Shown: positions 1,169 through 12,330 of the stretch, piece after piece
How the letters are laid out: every line of letters starts with the position of its first letter
Position numbering within the stretch: position 1 is the first letter of the stretch
Origin: an uncultured Bacilli bacterium
GTDB lineage: Bacteria; Bacillota_I; Bacilli_A; RF39; UBA660
Assembly: GCA_949065595.1 (NCBI GenBank)
Contig: CARSXK010000007.1
Span: 1,769 to 16,528, forward strand
DNA: 14,760 bases
Direction: 5' to 3'
Program-made: the position numbers and the translations under genes
Notes under the pieces: generated by a model
Seen by the model: only the letters and a program-made list of their open reading frames with translations
Told to the model about the DNA's origin: nothing
The model's database searches: none

Positions 1169-3385
1169 CTAATTTATACATATTTTTTTTAATTTCTGAC
1201 ATAAACTCGTTTTACGAATTCTTTCATTGTTATTTGAAACACTATAAACAAATGCCTGTGGTTCTCCAATTAAAATCAACTTTCGTTTGGCTCTGGTTAT
1301 TCCAGTATAAATGAGTTTACGATATAACATTCTATAATAAGACATACAAATAGGTAAAACAACCATTTCAAATTCGCTACCTTGAGATTTATGGATACTA
1401 ATAATATAACCATGTTTTATTTTAGAAAAATCTTTGGGCAAATACTTCACTTCTAATCCATCATAATCCACATAGATTTCATTTTTTTTACTTTTGCTTT
1501 GTTGTGCAGGAATAATGTATTTAATGATCCCAATATCTCCGTTGAACACGTTTTCATCTGGCATATTGACTAGCTGCAATACTTTATCATTTTCTCTAAA
1601 TATCACATCACCTACTTGGATTTCCCTTTTCCCTTCTTCCTTTGGATTCCATATCATCTGCAATATTTGATTGAAACGATCAATTCCGTTCATCCCAGCA
1701 TACATAGGTGCCATGACTTGTACTCTTTTATAATCGTATCCTTTTTCAATTAACTGTTCTGTTAATTTTTGCAATGTTGGGCCAATTTGCTCTGATGAAC
1801 AATTTAAAAATGTAAAATCATTGGTGGTATTCAAATACTGATTACTCAACTGATTATTTTTGATTTCTTCTGCCAAAACAGGAATATAAGAATCGGTACT
1901 TTGTCGATATAATAACTCCAAAGGAACTGTAGAAATACATTCACTTAATAATAAATCCTTTAGAACTTGACCAGGACCAACGCTTGCAAGTTGATTGGCA
2001 TCCCCAACCAATACCAATTGAATATTGGAAGTGAGTCCTTTTAGCAAATGGCCAAATAATTCAACATCAATCATACTCACCTCATCAACTACAATTAAAT
2101 GTTGCAAAGCAGGATTCCATTCATTGACTGCAAACTCATTGTTATCTTTATTCCATTTTAAAAATCGATGGATGGTTGTAGCTGGAAATAAGGTAGACTC
2201 CATCATCCGTTTACTCGCTCTTCCTGTAGGTGCCAACAAAGCAATTTGTTTCTCCGCTTCTTCTGCCGTCAAATGATTGAGACTCTGATACAATTCTACA
2301 ATCGCCTTAATAATGGTCGTCTTACCTGTCCCTGGTCCTCCTGTAATAATGGTAATATGTTTTTGAAGTGCTTCTTTAATCGCCTTTTTTTGTGCTTCAT
2401 TATATTCCATTTGTTGTGTATGTTCTAATATTTTTATTTTTTCATCCAAGGTTTGATTGATGGAATCTTTCTTTTGTAATAATGTTGAAATTCGCTTTAC
2501 AATATATTGTTCTGCTTCATAAATGGCTTTTAAATAATAATATCCTTCTTCTTCTATCAATTTATGTTCCAAACACAAGTCCTTTATATTGGCTTGAAAG
2601 ACATCTTTGTCCATTTCTGCATGAAAAAATTGATTACAGTTTTCATATATTTCCTCTAATGTAAAATAAGTATCTCCTGTTTCAAAAGAAAGTTTTTTAC
2701 AAATATGTAATAATCCTGCTTTGATGCGTCTTTCATCCATTGCATCCATGTTTAATTTTAGAGCAATGGAATCCACTTTTGTAAACGTAATTTCCTCAAC
2801 ATCGTCAATGGTTCTATAAATATTATGCTCCAATTCTAGAACAGTATTACTCTTATAACAATGATAAATCGCCAAAGCATCTTTCATAGAAAAACCAAGT
2901 TCTGTTAAGTACACGATCGTTTTATGACTTTCTTCATATTGTGTTAAGTGATCATAAATCTGTTTTTGTTTTTGATAAGAAAGTTTAGGAACTAAATTTA
3001 AACATGCTGGTTCTTCTAAAATACGCTCTAAAGTTTGGTCACCTAAAACTTCTACAATTTTAGTTGCCATTTTCTCCCCAATTCCTGGAAATAAATCACT
3101 AGATAAAAAGGCAATAATACCATCTTTGTCTTCTGGCTTCATATGCTCACATTCTGTTACCTGAAATTGAAAACCATATTTAGGATGTTGAACAGTTTCA
3201 CCATGTAATAAATAGATGTCATCTTCCTTTAAATCTGCAAAATATCCAGTAAAAGTCAATGTTTTTTCAATATAATCCTTTAATTCTTCATCGTTAGTTT
3301 CTTTGACCTTTAATATGCCAATTACAAAGCCTTTTTCAGAAGAAAAAATACTTCTTTTATAAATTCCTTTTACATATTTCTGCAT
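1169..3385 (-). CDS. recD2: ATP-dependent RecD-like DNA helicase (RecD2/YrrC family, SF1B)
   Basis: 738 aa. Walker A is GGPGTGKTT and Walker B is VVDEVSMID. The C-terminal motif is SIHKSQGSEF...YTGITRAK. The N-terminal OB/HhH-like region is typical of Bacillus YrrC. Confidence 0.92.
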   Translation of the reverse strand: MQKYVKGIYKRSIFSSEKGFVIGILKVKETNDEELKDYIEKTLTFTGYFADLKEDDIYLLHGETVQHPKYGFQFQVTECEHMKPEDKDGIIAFLSSDLFPGIGEKMATKIVEVLGDQTLERILEEPACLNLVPKLSYQKQKQIYDHLTQYEESHKTIVYLTELGFSMKDALAIYHCYKSNTVLELEHNIYRTIDDVEEITFTKVDSIALKLNMDAMDERRIKAGLLHICKKLSFETGDTYFTLEEIYENCNQFFHAEMDKDVFQANIKDLCLEHKLIEEEGYYYLKAIYEAEQYIVKRISTLLQKKDSINQTLDEKIKILEHTQQMEYNEAQKKAIKEALQKHITIITGGPGTGKTTIIKAIVELYQSLNHLTAEEAEKQIALLAPTGRASKRMMESTLFPATTIHRFLKWNKDNNEFAVNEWNPALQHLIVVDEVSMIDVELFGHLLKGLTSNIQLVLVGDANQLASVGPGQVLKDLLLSECISTVPLELLYRQSTDSYIPVLAEEIKNNQLSNQYLNTTNDFTFLNCSSEQIGPTLQKLTEQLIEKGYDYKRVQVMAPMYAGMNGIDRFNQILQMIWNPKEEGKREIQVGDVIFRENDKVLQLVNMPDENVFNGDIGIIKYIIPAQQSKSKKNEIYVDYDGLEVKYLPKDFSKIKHGYIISIHKSQGSEFEMVVLPICMSYYRMLYRKLIYTGITRAKRKLILIGEPQAFVYSVSNNNERIRKTSLCQKLKKICIN

Positions 3386-3406
3386 CTTATCATTCCTATC
3401 ATTTAC

Positions 3407-3435
3407 ATTATATCAAACATACGTTCTAATTACAA
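3407..3435 (-). promoter_or_regulatory. Sigma-A-type promoter of recD2 (TTGTAA-17 nt-TATAAT) with a Cheo-box-like element in the spacer
   Basis: On the minus strand the -35 TTGTAA is at 3430-3435 and the -10 TATAAT is at 3407-3412. The spacer contains AGAACGTATGTTTG (3414-3427), against the Firmicute LexA consensus CGAAC-N4-GTTCG. Confidence 0.45.
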
Positions 3436-3469
3436 ATAAATTTCAAAAAGAAAAAAGTCTTCTATGACT

Positions 3470-4087
3470 TTATTTTTTGAATTTTTGATGTCCTTCCAGT
3501 TCGGTTTCTAATTCTACCAAACCTTTTGTCCTAATGTCTTCCAATCTTTTTTGTTCCTGTTCCAACTGAATGTTTCGTTGATAATCAATTTCTGAATATA
3601 TATTAGGAATGCAAGCACAACCACTTCCTAATAACACACTAAACAGAATCATCGTACCAATTGTTTGTTTGATTCTATCTTTTCCTTTTGATTCCTCACT
3701 GTTAGCTCTATGAAGAAGATTCACCAAAGTTTTTTCTAGATCTCCCCATTCTAAATCGAGACATTTTTTCGTATATATCTCTTTGCTGACTTTCAATATC
3801 AACCGTTTTGTTGGTGCAGATAAACATTTTGATTTTATATTTCCTTTTTTGGCGCAGAAAATAAAGTACATACCATCCTTATTCATACAAAGAAAGCCAT
3901 CTATATTTTCAATCTTCACTCTCAATTCATGCAACAAATCAGAAACAATGATATCTGCTTGACCATTCTCTGGCGATATTTGTCTAAAGACAAATGCCTC
4001 CTGATTCACATCAATATATTGCAATCCATCCATATATGTTGCCGTATCATGCAATTCATAAACCAAACACTCATAATTTTTTGACAT
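3470..4087 (-). CDS. Hypothetical single-pass membrane protein (about 145-aa N-terminal domain, one TM segment, short charged coiled-coil tail)
   Basis: 205 aa. The RBS GGAGTGGAG and a TTGACA-16-TATACT promoter lie in 4088-4140. The TM segment is TIGTMILFSVLLGSGCACIPNIY. I recognise no family motif. Confidence 0.7.
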   Translation of the reverse strand: MSKNYECLVYELHDTATYMDGLQYIDVNQEAFVFRQISPENGQADIIVSDLLHELRVKIENIDGFLCMNKDGMYFIFCAKKGNIKSKCLSAPTKRLILKVSKEIYTKKCLDLEWGDLEKTLVNLLHRANSEESKGKDRIKQTIGTMILFSVLLGSGCACIPNIYSEIDYQRNIQLEQEQKRLEDIRTKGLVELETELEGHQKFKK

Positions 4088-4161: not shown

Positions 4162-5448
4162 CTAATTGGTATTTTTGGAATGAATGACAAGTACACTCCT
4201 ATGTTCAAAATGAAAAGCATCTACTACTTTTCTAAAATCACTGTAATTTAAACTTTGATACTCGTCATATAAATTGCTCCTGACATGACCATATCTTACA
4301 AAATCGCTCACCAATCGATTATTAAGTCGATCTACACTATCACTCATAAAAATACAAGAACTTAAAATTGTCTTCTTTTTACGAATGAAATCTGCCTCTA
4401 TCGTTTTTGTATTTTTGAGTTCTAAATCAATACGACTAATCAATTCATCTTGTCTTTCTGTTTCTCCTTCAATACTTAACAAAATATGACTTTCAATATC
4501 AGAAAAATCAAAATATAAATCTTCTGTTACCACCTTATCTTTTTTGAGTTGTTCTAAAAAAGATGAGGTTGCGCTCAATTTAATATCCAAATAAATCGAA
4601 ACATATAAAGAAAGTAATGTATCTGGAATATCCTTCATTTCTCTTTTATTTAATTTATAATTGATGAATATTTTAGGAATCGTCACATTCATAGCAATAC
4701 TTTCAAATTCCTTATTTACGGTATCTGGTTCTTGATATTCCTGAATTTTAATTGGTTCTGGTTTTGGAAATTGTTTTCTTGCCTGATTTTTTCGAATCCA
4801 TTCCATTGTCATTTCAGGATCTACATTACCAGTAATCACAAGAGCCATATTAGAAGGATGGTAAAATGTTTCATAGCAAGTATATAAATCTTTTTCAGTG
4901 ATGGATTCTACACTTTCTTTAGTACCACCTGTAGAAATCCGAAGTGGATGCACTTGTAGCAAATTCAAATTGCTTTTTTCAAATCCAACCCGATAAGGAT
5001 TATCCATATACATTTCGATTTCTTGTATTATGATTCCCTTTTCTTTTTCTACATTTTTCTTTGTAAAATAGGGTGATTGAACAAAATCAAGTAAAAAATT
5101 CAAATTTTTTTCAAAATCCTGCGTCCCTGCAAACCAGTAATTTGTTTGCCAAGGATTGGTAGAAGCATTGCACTCACTTCCACTTTCATCAAAGAAAGAA
5201 AACGGATCAACCCCATCTTCTTGTTCAAACAATTTATGTTCCAAAAAATGGGCAACTCCATCTGGAACACGAATCATTTCTGTTTTTCCCATTGGAACAA
5301 ATTCACTAACATTAGATCCATACTTGGTAACTAATGTAGCTCTTGCATTGTTACAATTTTCTTTTGGAACAATATAAACTTGTAGACCTTGTTCTAATGT
5401 TTCCTCATAAATGGTCAAATCCAAATGCTCAAAGGGTATCTTTTTCAT
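4162..5448 (-). CDS. M16 (pitrilysin/insulinase) family zinc metallopeptidase, catalytically competent subunit
   Basis: The inverted zinc motif HxxEH is present (VAHFLEHKLFEQE). I chose the start at the internal ATG 5446-5448 (MKKIPFEHLD...), which is preceded by AGGAGG. The track start at 5499 has no RBS. Confidence 0.85.
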   Translation of the reverse strand: MKKIPFEHLDLTIYEETLEQGLQVYIVPKENCNNARATLVTKYGSNVSEFVPMGKTEMIRVPDGVAHFLEHKLFEQEDGVDPFSFFDESGSECNASTNPWQTNYWFAGTQDFEKNLNFLLDFVQSPYFTKKNVEKEKGIIIQEIEMYMDNPYRVGFEKSNLNLLQVHPLRISTGGTKESVESITEKDLYTCYETFYHPSNMALVITGNVDPEMTMEWIRKNQARKQFPKPEPIKIQEYQEPDTVNKEFESIAMNVTIPKIFINYKLNKREMKDIPDTLLSLYVSIYLDIKLSATSSFLEQLKKDKVVTEDLYFDFSDIESHILLSIEGETERQDELISRIDLELKNTKTIEADFIRKKKTILSSCIFMSDSVDRLNNRLVSDFVRYGHVRSNLYDEYQSLNYSDFRKVVDAFHFEHRSVLVIHSKNTN

Positions 5449-6715
5449 TTTTGCCTCCTTCCAATAAATAAACGGTATCAACATGAATTTTTTTAGCAAG
5501 TTCTACAATCATGTCTTTTGTTACTTTTTTGATATTGTCTATTTTTTCTTCTAGCAAATCATTTCCCATATATTCATGTACCAAATAAATATTAGATAAT
5601 AGTGTTGGGGAATCCTCTACTTCCTTACAACCACTTATGAAAGTTGCAACAGCTTTTTCCATCATTTTAGAATCAAATTCCCCTTGCTGCATACTTTCAA
5701 TTTGTTCCTTGATTAAATTTAAGGTCTTTTTAAATGTTTTCGCATCAATTCCGGCAGAAATGACCAAAGTATGATACAAATAATTGTAGTTAGAATTAAT
5801 AAAATAGCAAAGTGAATTTTTTTCACGAACCGTTTGAAATAATTTAGAGTCTCCGCCCCCACCTAAGATAAAAGAATAAATATTCATAACATATTGGCGT
5901 TCAAAAGGGGTCAGTTCTTCTACTTTACAACCAATCAATAGCTGACTTTGTGTAATATCCATCGGCTCTTTTACTACTTGTTCTTCTTCTGAAAAATTTG
6001 TATAGTTTAATATATGTTCCCCAGTTGCCATTTGATTTTTAGGCGCTACAATATATTTTTCTATGTAAGATTTTGCCTGTTGTGAATCAATATCACCAAT
6101 GACAAAAACATCTACAATTGAATTATTTATCAGATTTTGATAATAAGTATATAAATTTTTTCTTGTAATTTTTTCTAAATCTTCTAAATACCCAGAAGGA
6201 TGATAAGAAAGTTTAGAATCTGGTGCCATGACTTCATATAAACGAAGTAAACTATATCGTCTCGGATTATCCTTGGTACTACGAATGTCTTCCTCTAATC
6301 CTTTTTTTATAATATCAAATGAGGTTTCATCAAAACAACCATCTACTACATTTGGGTGATATAGTAAATTCATAAAAAAAGCAATTGATTTTTCATTCAT
6401 ACCTAATTCTGTATATTTTTCATTTAAAAACCGACATTTAAAAGATAAAATACTATATTTACCTGATCGAATATTCGCTCCATTAACAGAGATATTATAT
6501 AAATCTTCTGTCGCGATAGAAAGTGCTTTACTGGTTGGATATTCCTTGCATGTAGAAAGTAACATATCATCTAAAAAATTGCGTATTGTTATTTCTTCTT
6601 TTTTGAGCTCATTTTTATAGTTGACAATGACTTGTATCGTTTTAAAGCGATCGGTTTTTATGATGTGCAAATTATAATTTTCTTGAGACAATTTTTGATA
6701 ATTCATAGCGTTCAC
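5429..6715 (-). CDS. M16 family peptidase-like protein lacking the zinc-binding motif (non-catalytic partner)
   Basis: 428 aa with M16-like length and layout. The position of HxxEH reads NFLDD. The RBS is AGAGGTGA. Its 3' end overlaps the next M16 gene by 20 nt. Confidence 0.8.
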   Translation of the reverse strand: MNAMNYQKLSQENYNLHIIKTDRFKTIQVIVNYKNELKKEEITIRNFLDDMLLSTCKEYPTSKALSIATEDLYNISVNGANIRSGKYSILSFKCRFLNEKYTELGMNEKSIAFFMNLLYHPNVVDGCFDETSFDIIKKGLEEDIRSTKDNPRRYSLLRLYEVMAPDSKLSYHPSGYLEDLEKITRKNLYTYYQNLINNSIVDVFVIGDIDSQQAKSYIEKYIVAPKNQMATGEHILNYTNFSEEEQVVKEPMDITQSQLLIGCKVEELTPFERQYVMNIYSFILGGGGDSKLFQTVREKNSLCYFINSNYNYLYHTLVISAGIDAKTFKKTLNLIKEQIESMQQGEFDSKMMEKAVATFISGCKEVEDSPTLLSNIYLVHEYMGNDLLEEKIDNIKKVTKDMIVELAKKIHVDTVYLLEGGKNEKDTL

Positions 6716-7497: not shown

Positions 7498-7941
7498 TTA
7501 TAATTTTTTCTGCAACATTTGTAATTCTGTCAACATATAATCGACTTGTAAAAAAGAAAGACATTTTTTCTTACATACTATCAACGAATAAGAATATTTA
7601 TAATATCTCATTAATAAAAAATTTCTTTTCCACTGTTTTCTCTTTTTCAATAAATATAAATGTTGATGCCACATAATAAATTTTAAATAGTGCAAATTAC
7701 TTTTAGAATACACTTGATAAAATTGCATCATCAGTATCAAATTTCTTTTGGTAAAACCAATTATAATCCCATACTGTTTCTGCAATTCCCATTCTAATAC
7801 TTTAAGCATATGAATCGGAATGTTTTTACAAAGGTAACAGCCGATTTGATAGTAAAGGAATATCAAAATGCCATTATCAATAGGATGACTCAAAGCTTCT
7901 AAAATATACAAATTAATTTGTTTGATATCTTCTTTTTTCAT
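7498..7941 (-). CDS. DUF1016 (YhcG-like) N-terminal-domain protein; the PD-(D/E)XK nuclease domain is absent (truncated remnant or stand-alone domain)
   Basis: 147 aa from the internal ATG 7939-7941 (RBS AAGGAG). LYYQIGCYL...YGIIIGFTKRNLILMMQFYQVY...WHQHLYLL...YSYSLIV matches my memory of the DUF1016 N-terminal pattern (LYWxIG...G.GFS.RNL..MR.FY...W.H...LL...WSvReL). The ORF ends where full-length members begin the nuclease domain. Confidence 0.5.
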   Translation of the reverse strand: MKKEDIKQINLYILEALSHPIDNGILIFLYYQIGCYLCKNIPIHMLKVLEWELQKQYGIIIGFTKRNLILMMQFYQVYSKSNLHYLKFIMWHQHLYLLKKRKQWKRNFLLMRYYKYSYSLIVCKKKCLSFLQVDYMLTELQMLQKKL

Positions 7942-7962
7942 AGTCCACTCCTTTATATTAAC

Positions 7963-7991
7963 AATATAAAGAATGTTAGACCAATTGTCAA
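7963..7991 (-). promoter_or_regulatory. Sigma-A-type promoter for the DUF1016-N ORF (TTGACA-17 nt-TATATT)
   Basis: On the minus strand TTGACA is at 7986-7991 and TATATT is at 7963-7968, with an exact 17-nt spacer, about 20 nt upstream of the RBS. Confidence 0.5.
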
Positions 7992-8188
7992 AGTATAAAA
8001 ATAAAAGATCAGAAGATAAAAAAAGACAAATTAATAATTTGCGGTAATACATTATTTGAATTTAGAATAGTAAGAAACTGCAAACTGAAAAAGAACGTTT
8101 TTTTAAATATTTTACTCAAAAAAATCATCATTTAATTGTTGAACAACTAAATTTATTTTATGAAAACACTTTTTTACAAAAACAGATG

Positions 8189-8323
8189 TTAAGAGACATA
8201 CAAAATTGCGTTGGAATTTCCTTCTTCCTCCAAATGGTTTATCTGTATAGAGTTTAAATATGTGAACCCTAATACAAATATCACAAAACCAATTAATACC
8301 TTACTATGTAACATTTCTTTCAT
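8189..8323 (-). CDS. Unannotated 44-aa small membrane protein, divergent from lexA and preceded by a LexA-box promoter
   Basis: Hand translation gives MKEMLHSKVLIGFVIFVLGFTYLNSIQINHLEEEGNSNAILYVS, with stop TAA at 8189-8191. A perfect RBS GAGGAGG (complement of 8331-8337) lies 7 nt before the ATG at 8321-8323. There is one predicted TM helix (VLIGFVIFVLGFTYL). The ORF is shorter than any entry in the ORF track. Confidence 0.6.
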   Translation of the reverse strand: MKEMLHSKVLIGFVIFVLGFTYLNSIQINHLEEEGNSNAILYVS

Positions 8324-8347
8324 TGTTTATCCTCCTCTGCTAATTTT

Positions 8348-8376
8348 AGTTTAACACGAACATACATTCGTGTCAA
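8348..8376 (-). promoter_or_regulatory. Promoter of the 44-aa ORF (TTGACA-17 nt-TAAACT) with LexA box 1 occupying the spacer
   Basis: On the minus strand TTGACA is at 8371-8376 and TAAACT is at 8348-8353. The spacer holds CGAATGTATGTTCG (plus-strand CGAACATACATTCG, 8357-8370), with one mismatch to CGAAC-N4-GTTCG. This box sits inside the 7-bp-arm palindrome ACACGAA-N6-TTCGTGT (8354-8373). Confidence 0.65.
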
Positions 8377-8385
8377 TACAAAATT

Positions 8386-8425
8386 CGAACAAATGTTTGA
8401 CTTATTGTCAACAGTGTGTTAAAAT
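8386..8425 (+). promoter_or_regulatory. lexA promoter (TTGACT-17 nt-TAAAAT) with LexA box 2 overlapping the -35 (autoregulation)
   Basis: CGAACAAATGTTTG is at 8386-8399, with one mismatch to the consensus. The -35 TTGACT is at 8397-8402 and the -10 TAAAAT is at 8420-8425. The RBS AAGGAGG precedes the ATG at 8456. Confidence 0.7.
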
Positions 8426-8455
8426 AAAGAGGAAAATAAAAAAGGAGGTCGTAAT

Positions 8456-9073
8456 ATGATTACATTAACCAAGCGACAAAATGAAATTTTAAGCTATATC
8501 AAAAAATATATTGCAACCCATGGTTATCCCCCTACCATTCGTGAAATTGGATCAGCGGTAGATGTTTCCTCCCCTGCAACCATCCATGCCCATTTGGCCA
8601 ATCTAGAGAAAAAAGGATTCATTCGAAAACAAGAAACCAAAAATCGTGCTTTAGAATTGTTAGTTGAAAATGAATTTGAACCTAAAAATGACTTAATTAT
8701 AGAAGTACCTTTGCTAGGAAAAATAACAGCTGGTTCTCCGATCGAAGCCATTGAACATCCCGATGAAACATTTGCGATACCATCCTACTTGGTTCCTAAA
8801 AATAAAGATGTCTTTACTCTAAACGTAAGTGGTACTAGTATGATAAATGCGGGAATTTTGGATGGAGATATTGTCATTGTGGAACGAAAAAATACAGCAC
8901 GCAATGGACAAATCGTTGTTGCTATGACAGATGAAAATGAAGTGACATTGAAAACATTTTATAAAGAAGATGGCTACTTTAGATTACAACCAGAAAACGA
9001 TTCCATGGAACCAATTATTTTAGACAATGTGACTATTTTAGGAATTGCGATTGGACTTTATCGAAAACTATAA
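8456..9073 (+). CDS. lexA: LexA transcriptional repressor (SOS regulator, S24 autopeptidase)
   Basis: 205 aa. The N-terminal winged HTH reads YPPTIREIGSAVDVSSPATIHAHLANLEKKGFI. The Ala-Gly cleavage site is in KITAGSPI. The catalytic Ser is in VSGTSM and the Lys is in VTLKTFY. Confidence 0.97.
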   Translation: MITLTKRQNEILSYIKKYIATHGYPPTIREIGSAVDVSSPATIHAHLANLEKKGFIRKQETKNRALELLVENEFEPKNDLIIEVPLLGKITAGSPIEAIEHPDETFAIPSYLVPKNKDVFTLNVSGTSMINAGILDGDIVIVERKNTARNGQIVVAMTDENEVTLKTFYKEDGYFRLQPENDSMEPIILDNVTILGIAIGLYRKL

Positions 9074-9105
9074 AAGAGAATTCATTGGAATCCTCTTTTA
9101 TTTTT
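9072..9105. terminator. Bidirectional terminator shared by the convergent lexA and lipoprotein genes
   Basis: A 12-bp stem AAAAGAGAATTC / GAATCCTCTTTT has one mismatch and a 4-nt loop (ATTG). T-tracts flank it on both strands. It overlaps both stop codons. Confidence 0.6.
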
Positions 9106-10428: not shown

Positions 10429-10476
10429 ATTTCCACATCCCCTATCAGTTTAACATAAATCATAGAAAAAAGAAAC

Positions 10477-11154
10477 TTACGTTCGTCTCTTTTTTCTTTT
10501 TTCATTATAACTTTTTAGTATTGCTTTGACATCTGGAAAAGCATTCATCAAGCGTTTTCCTAAAAAGGAACGATTGGATAAAACAGCTTTGACTTTTTTT
10601 GAAATTTCTTCTGTACTGTCTTTTCGAATATTAGTTGCAACTTTCTTAAAATTAAGAATAACTTTAAAGGAAACCAAATTATCAGTGATGAAAATTAAAA
10701 AGAAAAGAATAGCTGTTATTGTTAATATTTGACTAGGTATCAAGGACAAACTATATGTAATAAGAGGATTGGCTATATACAAAATCAAGCATCCACCAAT
10801 TCCAAAAAGAATCATATTTACCAAACAAATACGACCATTGAGATTGAATTTACTACTGCTATAATCCCACCACCTTGCTTTGAATATTTTTTCCATAATA
10901 TAGCTTGTTCCATATTCTAATACAGAACAAATAACAATTGTCATTAGAAATAAAACAAGGGGGTTGCTTATATAAGAATGTAAAAAATAAATAATAAATA
11001 AAGAGCCATATCCATAGATAGGACAATAAGGGCCGATTAAAAAACCACGGTTTATCCATTTTTTTGTAATCAAAAAAATATTAATTACTTCTATAATCCA
11101 ACCAATAAAAGAATAAATCATAAATAACAAAAACCATGTTTTCAAATCATACAT
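10477..11154 (-). CDS. Polytopic membrane protein of the PF06541 family (putative ABC-transporter type IV)
   Basis: 225 aa with about 6 TM segments. It has the N-terminal YSFIGWIIEV and GPYCPIYGYG motifs typical of that family, and a basic C-terminal tail. Confidence 0.7.
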   Translation of the reverse strand: MYDLKTWFLLFMIYSFIGWIIEVINIFLITKKWINRGFLIGPYCPIYGYGSLFIIYFLHSYISNPLVLFLMTIVICSVLEYGTSYIMEKIFKARWWDYSSSKFNLNGRICLVNMILFGIGGCLILYIANPLITYSLSLIPSQILTITAILFFLIFITDNLVSFKVILNFKKVATNIRKDSTEEISKKVKAVLSNRSFLGKRLMNAFPDVKAILKSYNEKRKKRRT

Positions 11155-11276: not shown

Positions 11277-11350
11277 GCCGCCTTAGTTAAGTGGTATAAC
11301 AGAGCCATGGTAAGGCTCAGTTGTAAGTTCGATTCTTACAGGTGGCACCA
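11277..11350 (+). tRNA. tRNA-Thr, anticodon GGU, CCA encoded
   Basis: Hand-folded cloverleaf. The acceptor stem is GCCGCCT/AGGTGGC (one G-U pair). The D arm is GTTA-AGTGGTA-TAAC. The anticodon arm is GAGCC-ATGGTAA-GGCTC, placing GGT at positions 34-36 with U33 and A37. The variable loop is AGTT and the T arm is GTAAG-TTCGATT-CTTAC. The discriminator A and CCA follow, for 74 nt in total. Confidence 0.9.
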
Positions 11351-11469: not shown

Positions 11470-12330
11470 ATGAACAAAGAAATAGTTCAATCAGAAATAA
11501 ATGTAAATGATAACAAAATAAAAGTAATAAGAATAGGATCTAAAGAATATATATCTTTAACCGATTTAGCAAGATATGCAAATCCAGAAGAGCCTAAAGT
11601 CCCTATACAAACTTGGATGAGAAATAAAGATGTAATAGCTTATTTAGGATTGTGGGAAAAATTAAATAACGAAAATTTCAAAGGTCACGAATTTACGACC
11701 TTTGAAAATTCTGCTGGTAGAAATAGTTTTTATATGTCACCACAAAAGTGGGTCAAGGAAACAAACGCAATAGGAATTGTATCAAAATCTGGAAATAATG
11801 GTGGTACATATGCTTGCAGTGATATTGCTTTGGAATTTGCAAGTTGGTTATCTCCAGAATTTAAATTATATGTTATTCAAGAATTTGAAAGATTAAAGAA
11901 AAATGAAGCGTACCAGTATAAGCTTGATTGGTCTGCTAACAGAATGCTTGCAAAAACTAACTATCATATCCATACAGATTCTATTAAAGAAAATATTGTA
12001 CCTAAATTAACTGAAAAACAAAAACAATATATCTATGCAGAAGAAGCTGACGTGTTAAATGTAGCATTATTTGGTATGACTGCCAAAGAATGGAGAGAAG
12101 AAAATCCAAATTTAAAAGGCAATATTCGCGACTATACTGATTTAAAACATTTACTAATTTTATGTAACCTAGAAAATACTAATGCTGAACTCATTAACGA
12201 TAATATTCCACAAAAAGAAAGATTGGTAAAATTAAATAATTCTGCAATTAGACAAATGAAAATTTTAGAAAATGATAAGAGTATAAAGGAACTTGAAACA
12301 TTAAATAAAAATCTAATTGAAACGAAATAA
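11470..12330 (+). CDS. KilA-N domain-containing DNA-binding protein
   Basis: 286 aa with RBS AGGAGG. YISLTDLARYAN...WMRNKDVIAYLGLWEKLNNENF...GRNSFYMSPQKWVKETNAIGIVSKSGNNGGTYACSDIALEFASWLSPEFKLYVIQEFERLK matches the widespread KilA-N family pattern as I remember it. Confidence 0.8.
   Translation: MNKEIVQSEINVNDNKIKVIRIGSKEYISLTDLARYANPEEPKVPIQTWMRNKDVIAYLGLWEKLNNENFKGHEFTTFENSAGRNSFYMSPQKWVKETNAIGIVSKSGNNGGTYACSDIALEFASWLSPEFKLYVIQEFERLKKNEAYQYKLDWSANRMLAKTNYHIHTDSIKENIVPKLTEKQKQYIYAEEADVLNVALFGMTAKEWREENPNLKGNIRDYTDLKHLLILCNLENTNAELINDNIPQKERLVKLNNSAIRQMKILENDKSIKELETLNKNLIETK

Follow-up and report, generated by a model that had tools for sequence, protein, structure and literature searches.

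The Staphylococcus aureus gene sosA is transcribed divergently from lexA under LexA control, and encodes a protein of 77 aa whose residues 10-30 form a transmembrane (TM) segment and whose C-terminus is external (PMC6851548). SosA is without a LysM domain and shows no clear homology to YneA, and synteny served its describers as a clue to function (PMC6851548). The TM helix of YneA binds TM7 of FtsW, and SosA, ChiZ and SidA are predicted to do likewise; the YneA TM segment alone localises without inhibiting, the LysM domain being required in B. subtilis (PMC13396833). SidA of Caulobacter crescentus is a 29-aa, SOS-induced membrane inhibitor that acts on FtsW/FtsN (PMC6851548, PMC13396833). TisB is a LexA-controlled small membrane toxin (PMC8145889, PMC11575346).

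The window considered here, that is, the whole 14,760-nucleotide stretch of DNA that was analysed, carries a 44-aa ORF divergent from lexA. The ORF lies on the minus strand at 8189-8323, stop included (ATG 8323-8321, TAA 8191-8189; product MKEMLHSKVLIGFVIFVLGFTYLNSIQINHLEEEGNSNAILYVS), and its reading as a coding sequence draws on the ORF list, homologues, positional conservation, dN/dS and an AF2 model. A GAGGAGG Shine-Dalgarno sequence stands 7 nt before the ATG (minus strand, 8337-8331), with a GGAGG-like motif equally distant in relatives. The divergent gene (8456-9073, plus strand; 205 aa) has the Pfam domains LexA_DNA_bind and Peptidase_S24, and matches the NCBIfam equivalog TIGR00498 with E = 7e-70 and 234.8 bits against a cutoff of 110.95, identifying it as lexA. 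An initial annotation had already described the ORF, its ribosome-binding site, a promoter with a box-filled spacer and a second box over the lexA -35, all of which we recovered. Taken with the comparisons below, they make it very probable that this is a real gene for a LexA-operated membrane peptide.

Firmicute LexA binds CGAAC-N4-GTTCG, and a LexA box that fills the spacer between the -35 and -10 elements should exclude RNA polymerase, as is established for LexA operators generally. The predicted promoter of the small gene (minus strand, 8376-8348) consists of TTGACA (8376-8371), a 17-nt spacer and TAAACT (8353-8348), matching the consensus at 10 of 12 positions in a consensus promoter scan. 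A TG at 8356-8355, absent from the initial annotation, makes the -10 element an extended one. A 5′ UTR of about 18 nt is predicted. Operator 1 (8357-8370; CGAACATACATTCG on the plus strand, CGAATGTATGTTCG when read on the minus strand from 8370 to 8357) has one mismatch to the Firmicute box, adjoins the -35 and takes up 14 of the 17 bases of the spacer. Operator 2 (8386-8399, CGAACAAATGTTTG) also has one mismatch, and its 3′ half, GTTTGAC, forms the -35 of the lexA promoter (plus strand, 8397-8425), in which TTGACT (8397-8402) and TAAAAT (8420-8425) are separated by 17 nt with a TG extension. By match and placement, both are putative Firmicute LexA (Cheo-box) operators.

Within the window alone, such features are weak evidence, little better than chance. 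Four boxes with at most two mismatches occur where 1.4 are expected, a count attained in 10 of 200 shuffles; promoter-like sites number eight against 10.8 in shuffles, showing no excess; and ten ORFs of at least 20 aa occur in 600 bp. For comparison, 80 lexA loci were gathered by a LexA search of one-genome-per-species contigs, with LexA identities from 97% down to 69%. All come from metagenome-assembled genomes of uncultured gut bacteria of animals and humans, classed as Bacilli, "Tenericutes" or Firmicutes. Two named genera occur among these relatives, Candidatus Coprosoma (L019) and, as Candidatus Faecisoma merdavium, Faecisoma (L058); both were placed by their describers in GTDB order RF39, family CAG-822 (PMC8035907). 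Together with a mouse-gut study listed beside runs that contain the window sequence, these placements point to an RF39-type gut bacterium as the probable source of the window.

In 77 of 81 loci there are at least two boxes, with positions near -97 and -68 relative to the lexA ATG, and in 76 a box abuts a TTGACA-like hexamer (at most one mismatch). Outside the lexA upstream regions, the same loci contain no box with one mismatch or fewer in 601,125 bp. Judged across the relatives, the evidence against chance is overwhelming. In the operator-context alignment, the operator within the small-gene promoter is conserved base for base, with the consensus aTTGACA-CGAAyAwwTGTTCG-TGnTAnnAT over 76 loci; the lexA side reads CrAACAAATGTTTGAC-(N)-TGTTAAAAT. 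In 48 loci the two operators are spaced 28-29 bp apart, start to start; in 18 others the figure is 38-39 bp. Operator 1 is closer to the consensus than lexA's own operator: it has no mismatch in 10 loci, one in 64 and two in 2, giving 0-1 mismatches in 74 of 76, compared with one in 29 and two in 47 for operator 2. This difference suggests that the peptide gene is under tighter repression than lexA. With its conserved combination of -35, box and extended -10, the promoter provides a clean model operator from which this lineage's LexA regulon could be defined.

Two further LexA-like boxes in the window, each with two mismatches, lie near other genes. The first, AGAACGTATGTTTG (minus strand, 3414-3427, within the context 3385-3450), occupies the spacer of a TTGTAA-17-TATAAT promoter-like site 29 nt upstream of a recD2-type helicase gene (1169-3385, minus strand). 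Because this layout resembles the operator of the small gene, the helicase may belong to the SOS regulon here. The second, CGAACGTAAGTTTC (10472-10485, minus strand), is upstream of queH (start 10428), 16 nt before the extended -10 sequence TGTTAAACT, and overlaps the end of a CmpB-family gene; it is weaker and may be due to chance.

The reality of the ORF is most clearly seen across relatives. A single-sequence search with the 44-aa peptide returned 22 homologues of 41-63 aa, in which the N-terminal half is nearly invariant (MKEMLHSKVLvGFvvFVLGFTY) and the acidic tail variable. A profile search with the peptide family reached 299 clusters, and HMMER against 1.84 billion protein representatives (E ≤ 0.001) returned 291 clusters at 50% identity. 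The 150 HMMER matches listed are all 29-85 aa long, and family members at the same position are typically single-pass membrane ORFs of 40-55 aa. In some family calls above about 55 aa, an upstream start has added an N-terminal extension, and for several listed matches of 70-85 aa the extra length, where checked, looks like a mis-called upstream start.

The codon pattern points the same way. Over the first 26 codons in 48 loci, pairwise differences amount to 0.42 at the first codon position, 0.23 at the second and 0.47 at the third, and the stronger conservation of the second position is the mark of selection for hydrophobic NTN codons. For the six closest relatives, dN ranges over 0.03-0.23 and dS over 0.15-2.1, with dN/dS about 0.1 (range 0.05-0.23) among close relatives, a pattern indicating that the reading frame is under purifying selection.

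The peptide itself has no Pfam match at E ≤ 0.1 and its family none in NCBIfam. The clusters found by the profile search carry no Pfam domain and bear the sole name "hypothetical protein". A match of one relative to YahO, at 0.064, is at chance level and was rejected. The expectation of a small protein without LysM thus holds for this 44-aa product. The initial annotation had also called the ORF unannotated and likely to be missed by gene calling. It is indeed unnamed; public callers do call the gene, as "hypothetical protein" homologues of 44-48 aa, so the expectation that it would be missed was mistaken. One public record, P0001, has the identical sequence called as 41 aa from Met4. The start is likely Met1 rather than Met4, given the correct spacing of the ribosome-binding site and the conservation of K2 and E3.

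The initial annotation had named loss of the frame in relatives with an otherwise conserved intergenic region as a refutation; the ORF passed this check, being retained in about 76 of the 80 loci. A profile HMM of the peptide, run on every stop-to-stop segment of these loci, placed its best match immediately upstream of lexA, on the minus strand, in 73 of them, about 65 of these at E < 1e-3. Hand inspection of the loci that seemed to lack the ORF revealed ORFs of equal size and topology with a diverged N-terminus in L048, L057, L059 and L079. The small ORF is missing from four others. In two of these (L065 and L071), lexA has degenerate boxes upstream and lies opposite the gene of a UPF0154 (YneF-family) membrane protein; in the remaining two (L054 and L067), other neighbours stand beside lexA. 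In the reverse test, three family members chosen by peptide sequence (P0028, P0119, P0092) lie 132-134 bp from lexA, in divergent orientation, in six of six places. The sequence at 7900-9100 is also contained in two low-depth contig sets of unknown library type, which bears on presence only; the mouse-gut metatranscriptomes listed alongside these matches do not contain the locus.

On the side of the ORF, the window's other genes, for a DUF1016_N protein, a PNP-family phosphorylase and two M16 peptidases, are shared only with five loci (L001-L005). Elsewhere, the next gene encodes transketolase in about 30 loci, with its identity confirmed by Pfam in L009 and L023, and in the rest a MazG-like protein, an AI-2E transporter, a pilin-like protein, a polysaccharide synthase or others. 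Locus L081 has lexA on one side and the peptide gene, transketolase and UPF0154 genes, in that order, on the other. We take the B. subtilis order to be lexA on one side and yneA, yneB, ynzC (BSU17880), tkt and, further along, yneF on the other, YneF presumably being the UPF0154 protein. Since the order in L081 matches this neighbourhood, the peptide appears to fill the yneA slot of an ancestral Bacilli neighbourhood. The initial annotation's view of the ORF as a positional analogue of yneA and sosA is supported by the conserved ORF and operator, the reverse test and the transketolase and UPF0154 neighbours. The gene order indicates that these organisms retain a LexA-controlled, lexA-divergent module in the ancestral Bacillus-type layout.

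The DNA immediately downstream of the peptide gene varies among close relatives. In the three closest (L001 579-950, L002 3356-3730 and L003 3353-3730), a gene for a MazG-like pyrophosphohydrolase of about 123 aa begins 4-15 nt after the peptide gene and is probably co-transcribed with it. The window contains no MazG-like remnant; about 145 bp of AT-rich DNA (8053-8197) is found instead, and similarity to L001 resumes on either side of the replaced segment. A consensus scan of the window found no intrinsic terminator after the small ORF, and the fold of 8040-8200 (z = -0.17) is just an AU-rich hairpin followed by a U-run. A different arrangement is seen in L068, where the LexA-operated promoter is separated from the peptide gene by a 62-aa ORF (3661-3849, minus strand; MEYYTVSDIQILTGYKEV...) that matches no Pfam family and whose stop overlaps the peptide start (ATGA). 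The same ORF also occurs in L053, L058, L060, L063, L066, L070, L072, L073 and L078 of this sub-clade, and with the peptide gene it looks like a two-gene SOS operon.

Further features of the window concern its wider context. Downstream of the peptide gene, 7498-7944 (minus strand) matches DUF1016_N only, at 32.5 bits against the Pfam cutoff of 32.8; it likely starts at 7944, giving about 148 aa, and has its own TTGACA-17-TATATT promoter (7991-7963). As the more distant loci L083 and L084 encode full-length YhcG-type proteins of 295-300 aa with a C-terminal nuclease domain, the form in the window and in L001-L005 appears to be shortened. As listed, there is a 71-bp overlap between the minus-strand ORFs for two M16-family peptidases (4162-5499 and 5429-6715), of which the downstream one, with a TTG start at 5499, probably starts later. 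A tRNA-Thr(GGT) at 11277-11350, the sole Rfam match in the window at E ≤ 1, is followed by a gene with a KilA-N domain (11470-12330) and then by genes oriented opposite to the block on the other side. This region may be the edge of an integrated element.

The peptide has a simple layout, with a basic N-terminus (MKEMLHSK), one TM helix at about residues 9-26 and an acidic tail of 18 residues. AF2 with the family alignment predicts a single helix over residues 2-39, with a pLDDT of 96 at residues 11-20 and low confidence in the tail. Across 156 trimmed family members, the net charge is +1.3 before the hydrophobic core and -1.5 in the tail, and 90% of them obey the positive-inside rule for an N-in/C-out orientation. 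The predicted topology is therefore single-pass, with the N-terminus in the cytoplasm and the acidic tail outside. In the family the external tail spans 18-22 residues, is often acidic and frequently has a hydrophobic-x-N-x-K ending. K8 is nearly invariant, and the family consensus has glycine as residue 19 and an aromatic side chain at residue 22.

From position and topology, we lean, with slightly better than even confidence, towards the peptide being a LexA-repressed SOS division inhibitor, a counterpart of YneA and SosA. With LexA on operator 1, which separates the -35 from the extended -10, RNA polymerase would be blocked at the peptide promoter, and the weaker second operator on the lexA -35 would provide for autoregulation of lexA. 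On DNA damage, RecA-stimulated self-cleavage of LexA would free both promoters, and the peptide would be made fast from a very short leader with a strong ribosome-binding site. It would then insert in the membrane and delay division as the SOS checkpoint effector of this lineage. The most plausible target would be a septal peptidoglycan synthase of the FtsW type, contacted by the TM helix. As the peptide has no LysM domain, the helix and the short tail would have to bring about any inhibition. A peptidoglycan synthase is a plausible target, since a peptidoglycan wall is predicted for most RF39, although most penicillin-binding proteins (PBPs) had been lost in the common ancestor of RFN20, RF39 and ML615J-28 (PMC10868615).

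A bolder proposal, which we regard as speculative and probably too strong, is that this is the smallest lexA-linked checkpoint effector in Bacillota. It would be essentially TM-only and would block septal wall synthesis without a peptidoglycan-binding or long external domain, in a reduced-genome lineage short of PBPs; or else it would be a Gram-positive example of an SOS membrane toxin, sending gut commensals into dormancy. If the first form were true, a helix and an 18-residue acidic tail would represent the smallest surface able to shut off an FtsW-type synthase. Because the TM segment of YneA is non-inhibitory by itself, a peptide resembling it may act differently or do something else.

One such possibility is another LexA-regulated role at the membrane, such as modulation of a protease, a transporter or envelope stress signalling during DNA damage, or service as an adaptor for an SOS protein. 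The regulation and the membrane location are well supported and neither points to a target, which leaves room for this explanation. The 62-aa ORF with its ATGA overlap hints at a two-gene module in one sub-clade, and the MazG-like gene within 4-15 nt in L001-L003 may be counted on the same side. These co-transcribed partners vary, however, while the peptide is conserved, and every characterised lexA-divergent small membrane protein of Bacillota (YneA, SosA) inhibits division (PMC6851548, PMC13396833). We consider this alternative unlikely.

The main rival to division inhibition, in our view distinctly unlikely, is an SOS membrane toxin of the TisB type, which would dissipate the proton-motive force and drive dormancy or persistence rather than act on the divisome. 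The small size, hydrophobicity, single helix and tightly LexA-operated promoter of the peptide are all compatible with it, and TisB itself is a LexA-controlled small membrane toxin (PMC8145889, PMC11575346). The peptide also barely exceeds a TM helix, and the TM segment of YneA alone does not inhibit division (PMC13396833). An antitoxin RNA, however, left no sign over this region: Rfam gave no match to a known RNA in 7900-8500 at E ≤ 1, and in a consensus scan the ORF and the DNA just downstream of it had no promoter-like site on the plus (antisense) strand. In the TisB/IstR-1 system of Escherichia coli, the antitoxin is an antisense RNA and the tisB leader is long, structured and processed. 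Here, in contrast, the leader is about 18 nt long and exposes a strong ribosome-binding site, so that neither the antisense or divergent RNA nor the structured leader of a type I toxin-antitoxin system is seen. The fixed chromosomal yneA/sosA slot by tkt and UPF0154 also speaks, though not decisively, against a toxin, as do the conserved acidic tail and its hydrophobic-x-N-x-K end, which a pore-former would not need.

A translated leader regulating a downstream gene such as transketolase, or a chance ORF in an AT-rich spacer, is highly improbable. In favour of these readings, short ORFs are frequent (ten of at least 20 aa per 600 bp) and this one often lies about 60 nt ahead of transketolase, but its amino-acid sequence is under purifying selection in a family of 291 representative clusters and the peptide persists when the downstream gene changes. 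The gap before transketolase has its own extended -10 and in some loci a hairpin and U-run terminator; with the variable downstream gene, this led us to reject the transketolase leader in particular.

The division-inhibitor reading, which we continue to favour, has consequences for a family that so far is known only from uncultured, reduced-genome gut Bacilli. The peptide gives some 290-300 unnamed clusters a name and a testable role. What is new here is a sequence family rather than a principle, namely another, unusually small, lexA-divergent SOS membrane peptide.

Compared with known systems, the peptide resembles TisB in being a LexA-repressed, small, hydrophobic membrane peptide; TisB, to our knowledge, has no external tail and is unlinked to lexA. 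With SidA it shares the format of a minimal, essentially TM-only peptide, DNA-damage-induced in the case of SidA and presumptively so here, and SidA shows that a peptide of such size can block late division. The two have no sequence relation, the host of SidA belongs to a different phylum with a different LexA box, and we know of no sidA gene beside lexA.

The likeness to YneA and SosA is closer. Profile searches returned only unnamed short proteins, and the peptide is here set against SosA and YneA by their published descriptions. A lexA-divergent gene with a LexA box in its promoter, the arrangement that marks the YneA/SosA class, is found in 76 of 81 loci. With YneA, which occurs in B. subtilis and Listeria, the peptide shares the slot beside lexA with transketolase and UPF0154 nearby (in the B. 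subtilis order assumed above), a single TM helix with a predicted N-in/C-out orientation, and the Firmicute CGAAC-N4-GTTCG operator. In contrast to YneA, it is less than half as long and has a tail of about 18 residues, with no Pfam match, in place of the C-terminal LysM domain that characterises the YneA family. SosA is similar in its lexA-divergent position, LexA control, small size, N-terminal TM segment and external C-terminus, LysM being absent from both, and in each case conservation is strongest at and just after the TM segment. The peptide differs from SosA in length (44-48 aa versus 77), in its external part (about 18-22 residues versus about 45) and in its host, an uncultured RF39-type lineage. 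If its function is confirmed, it would represent a very compact natural inhibitor of late division that can be compared with YneA, SosA and SidA on FtsW.
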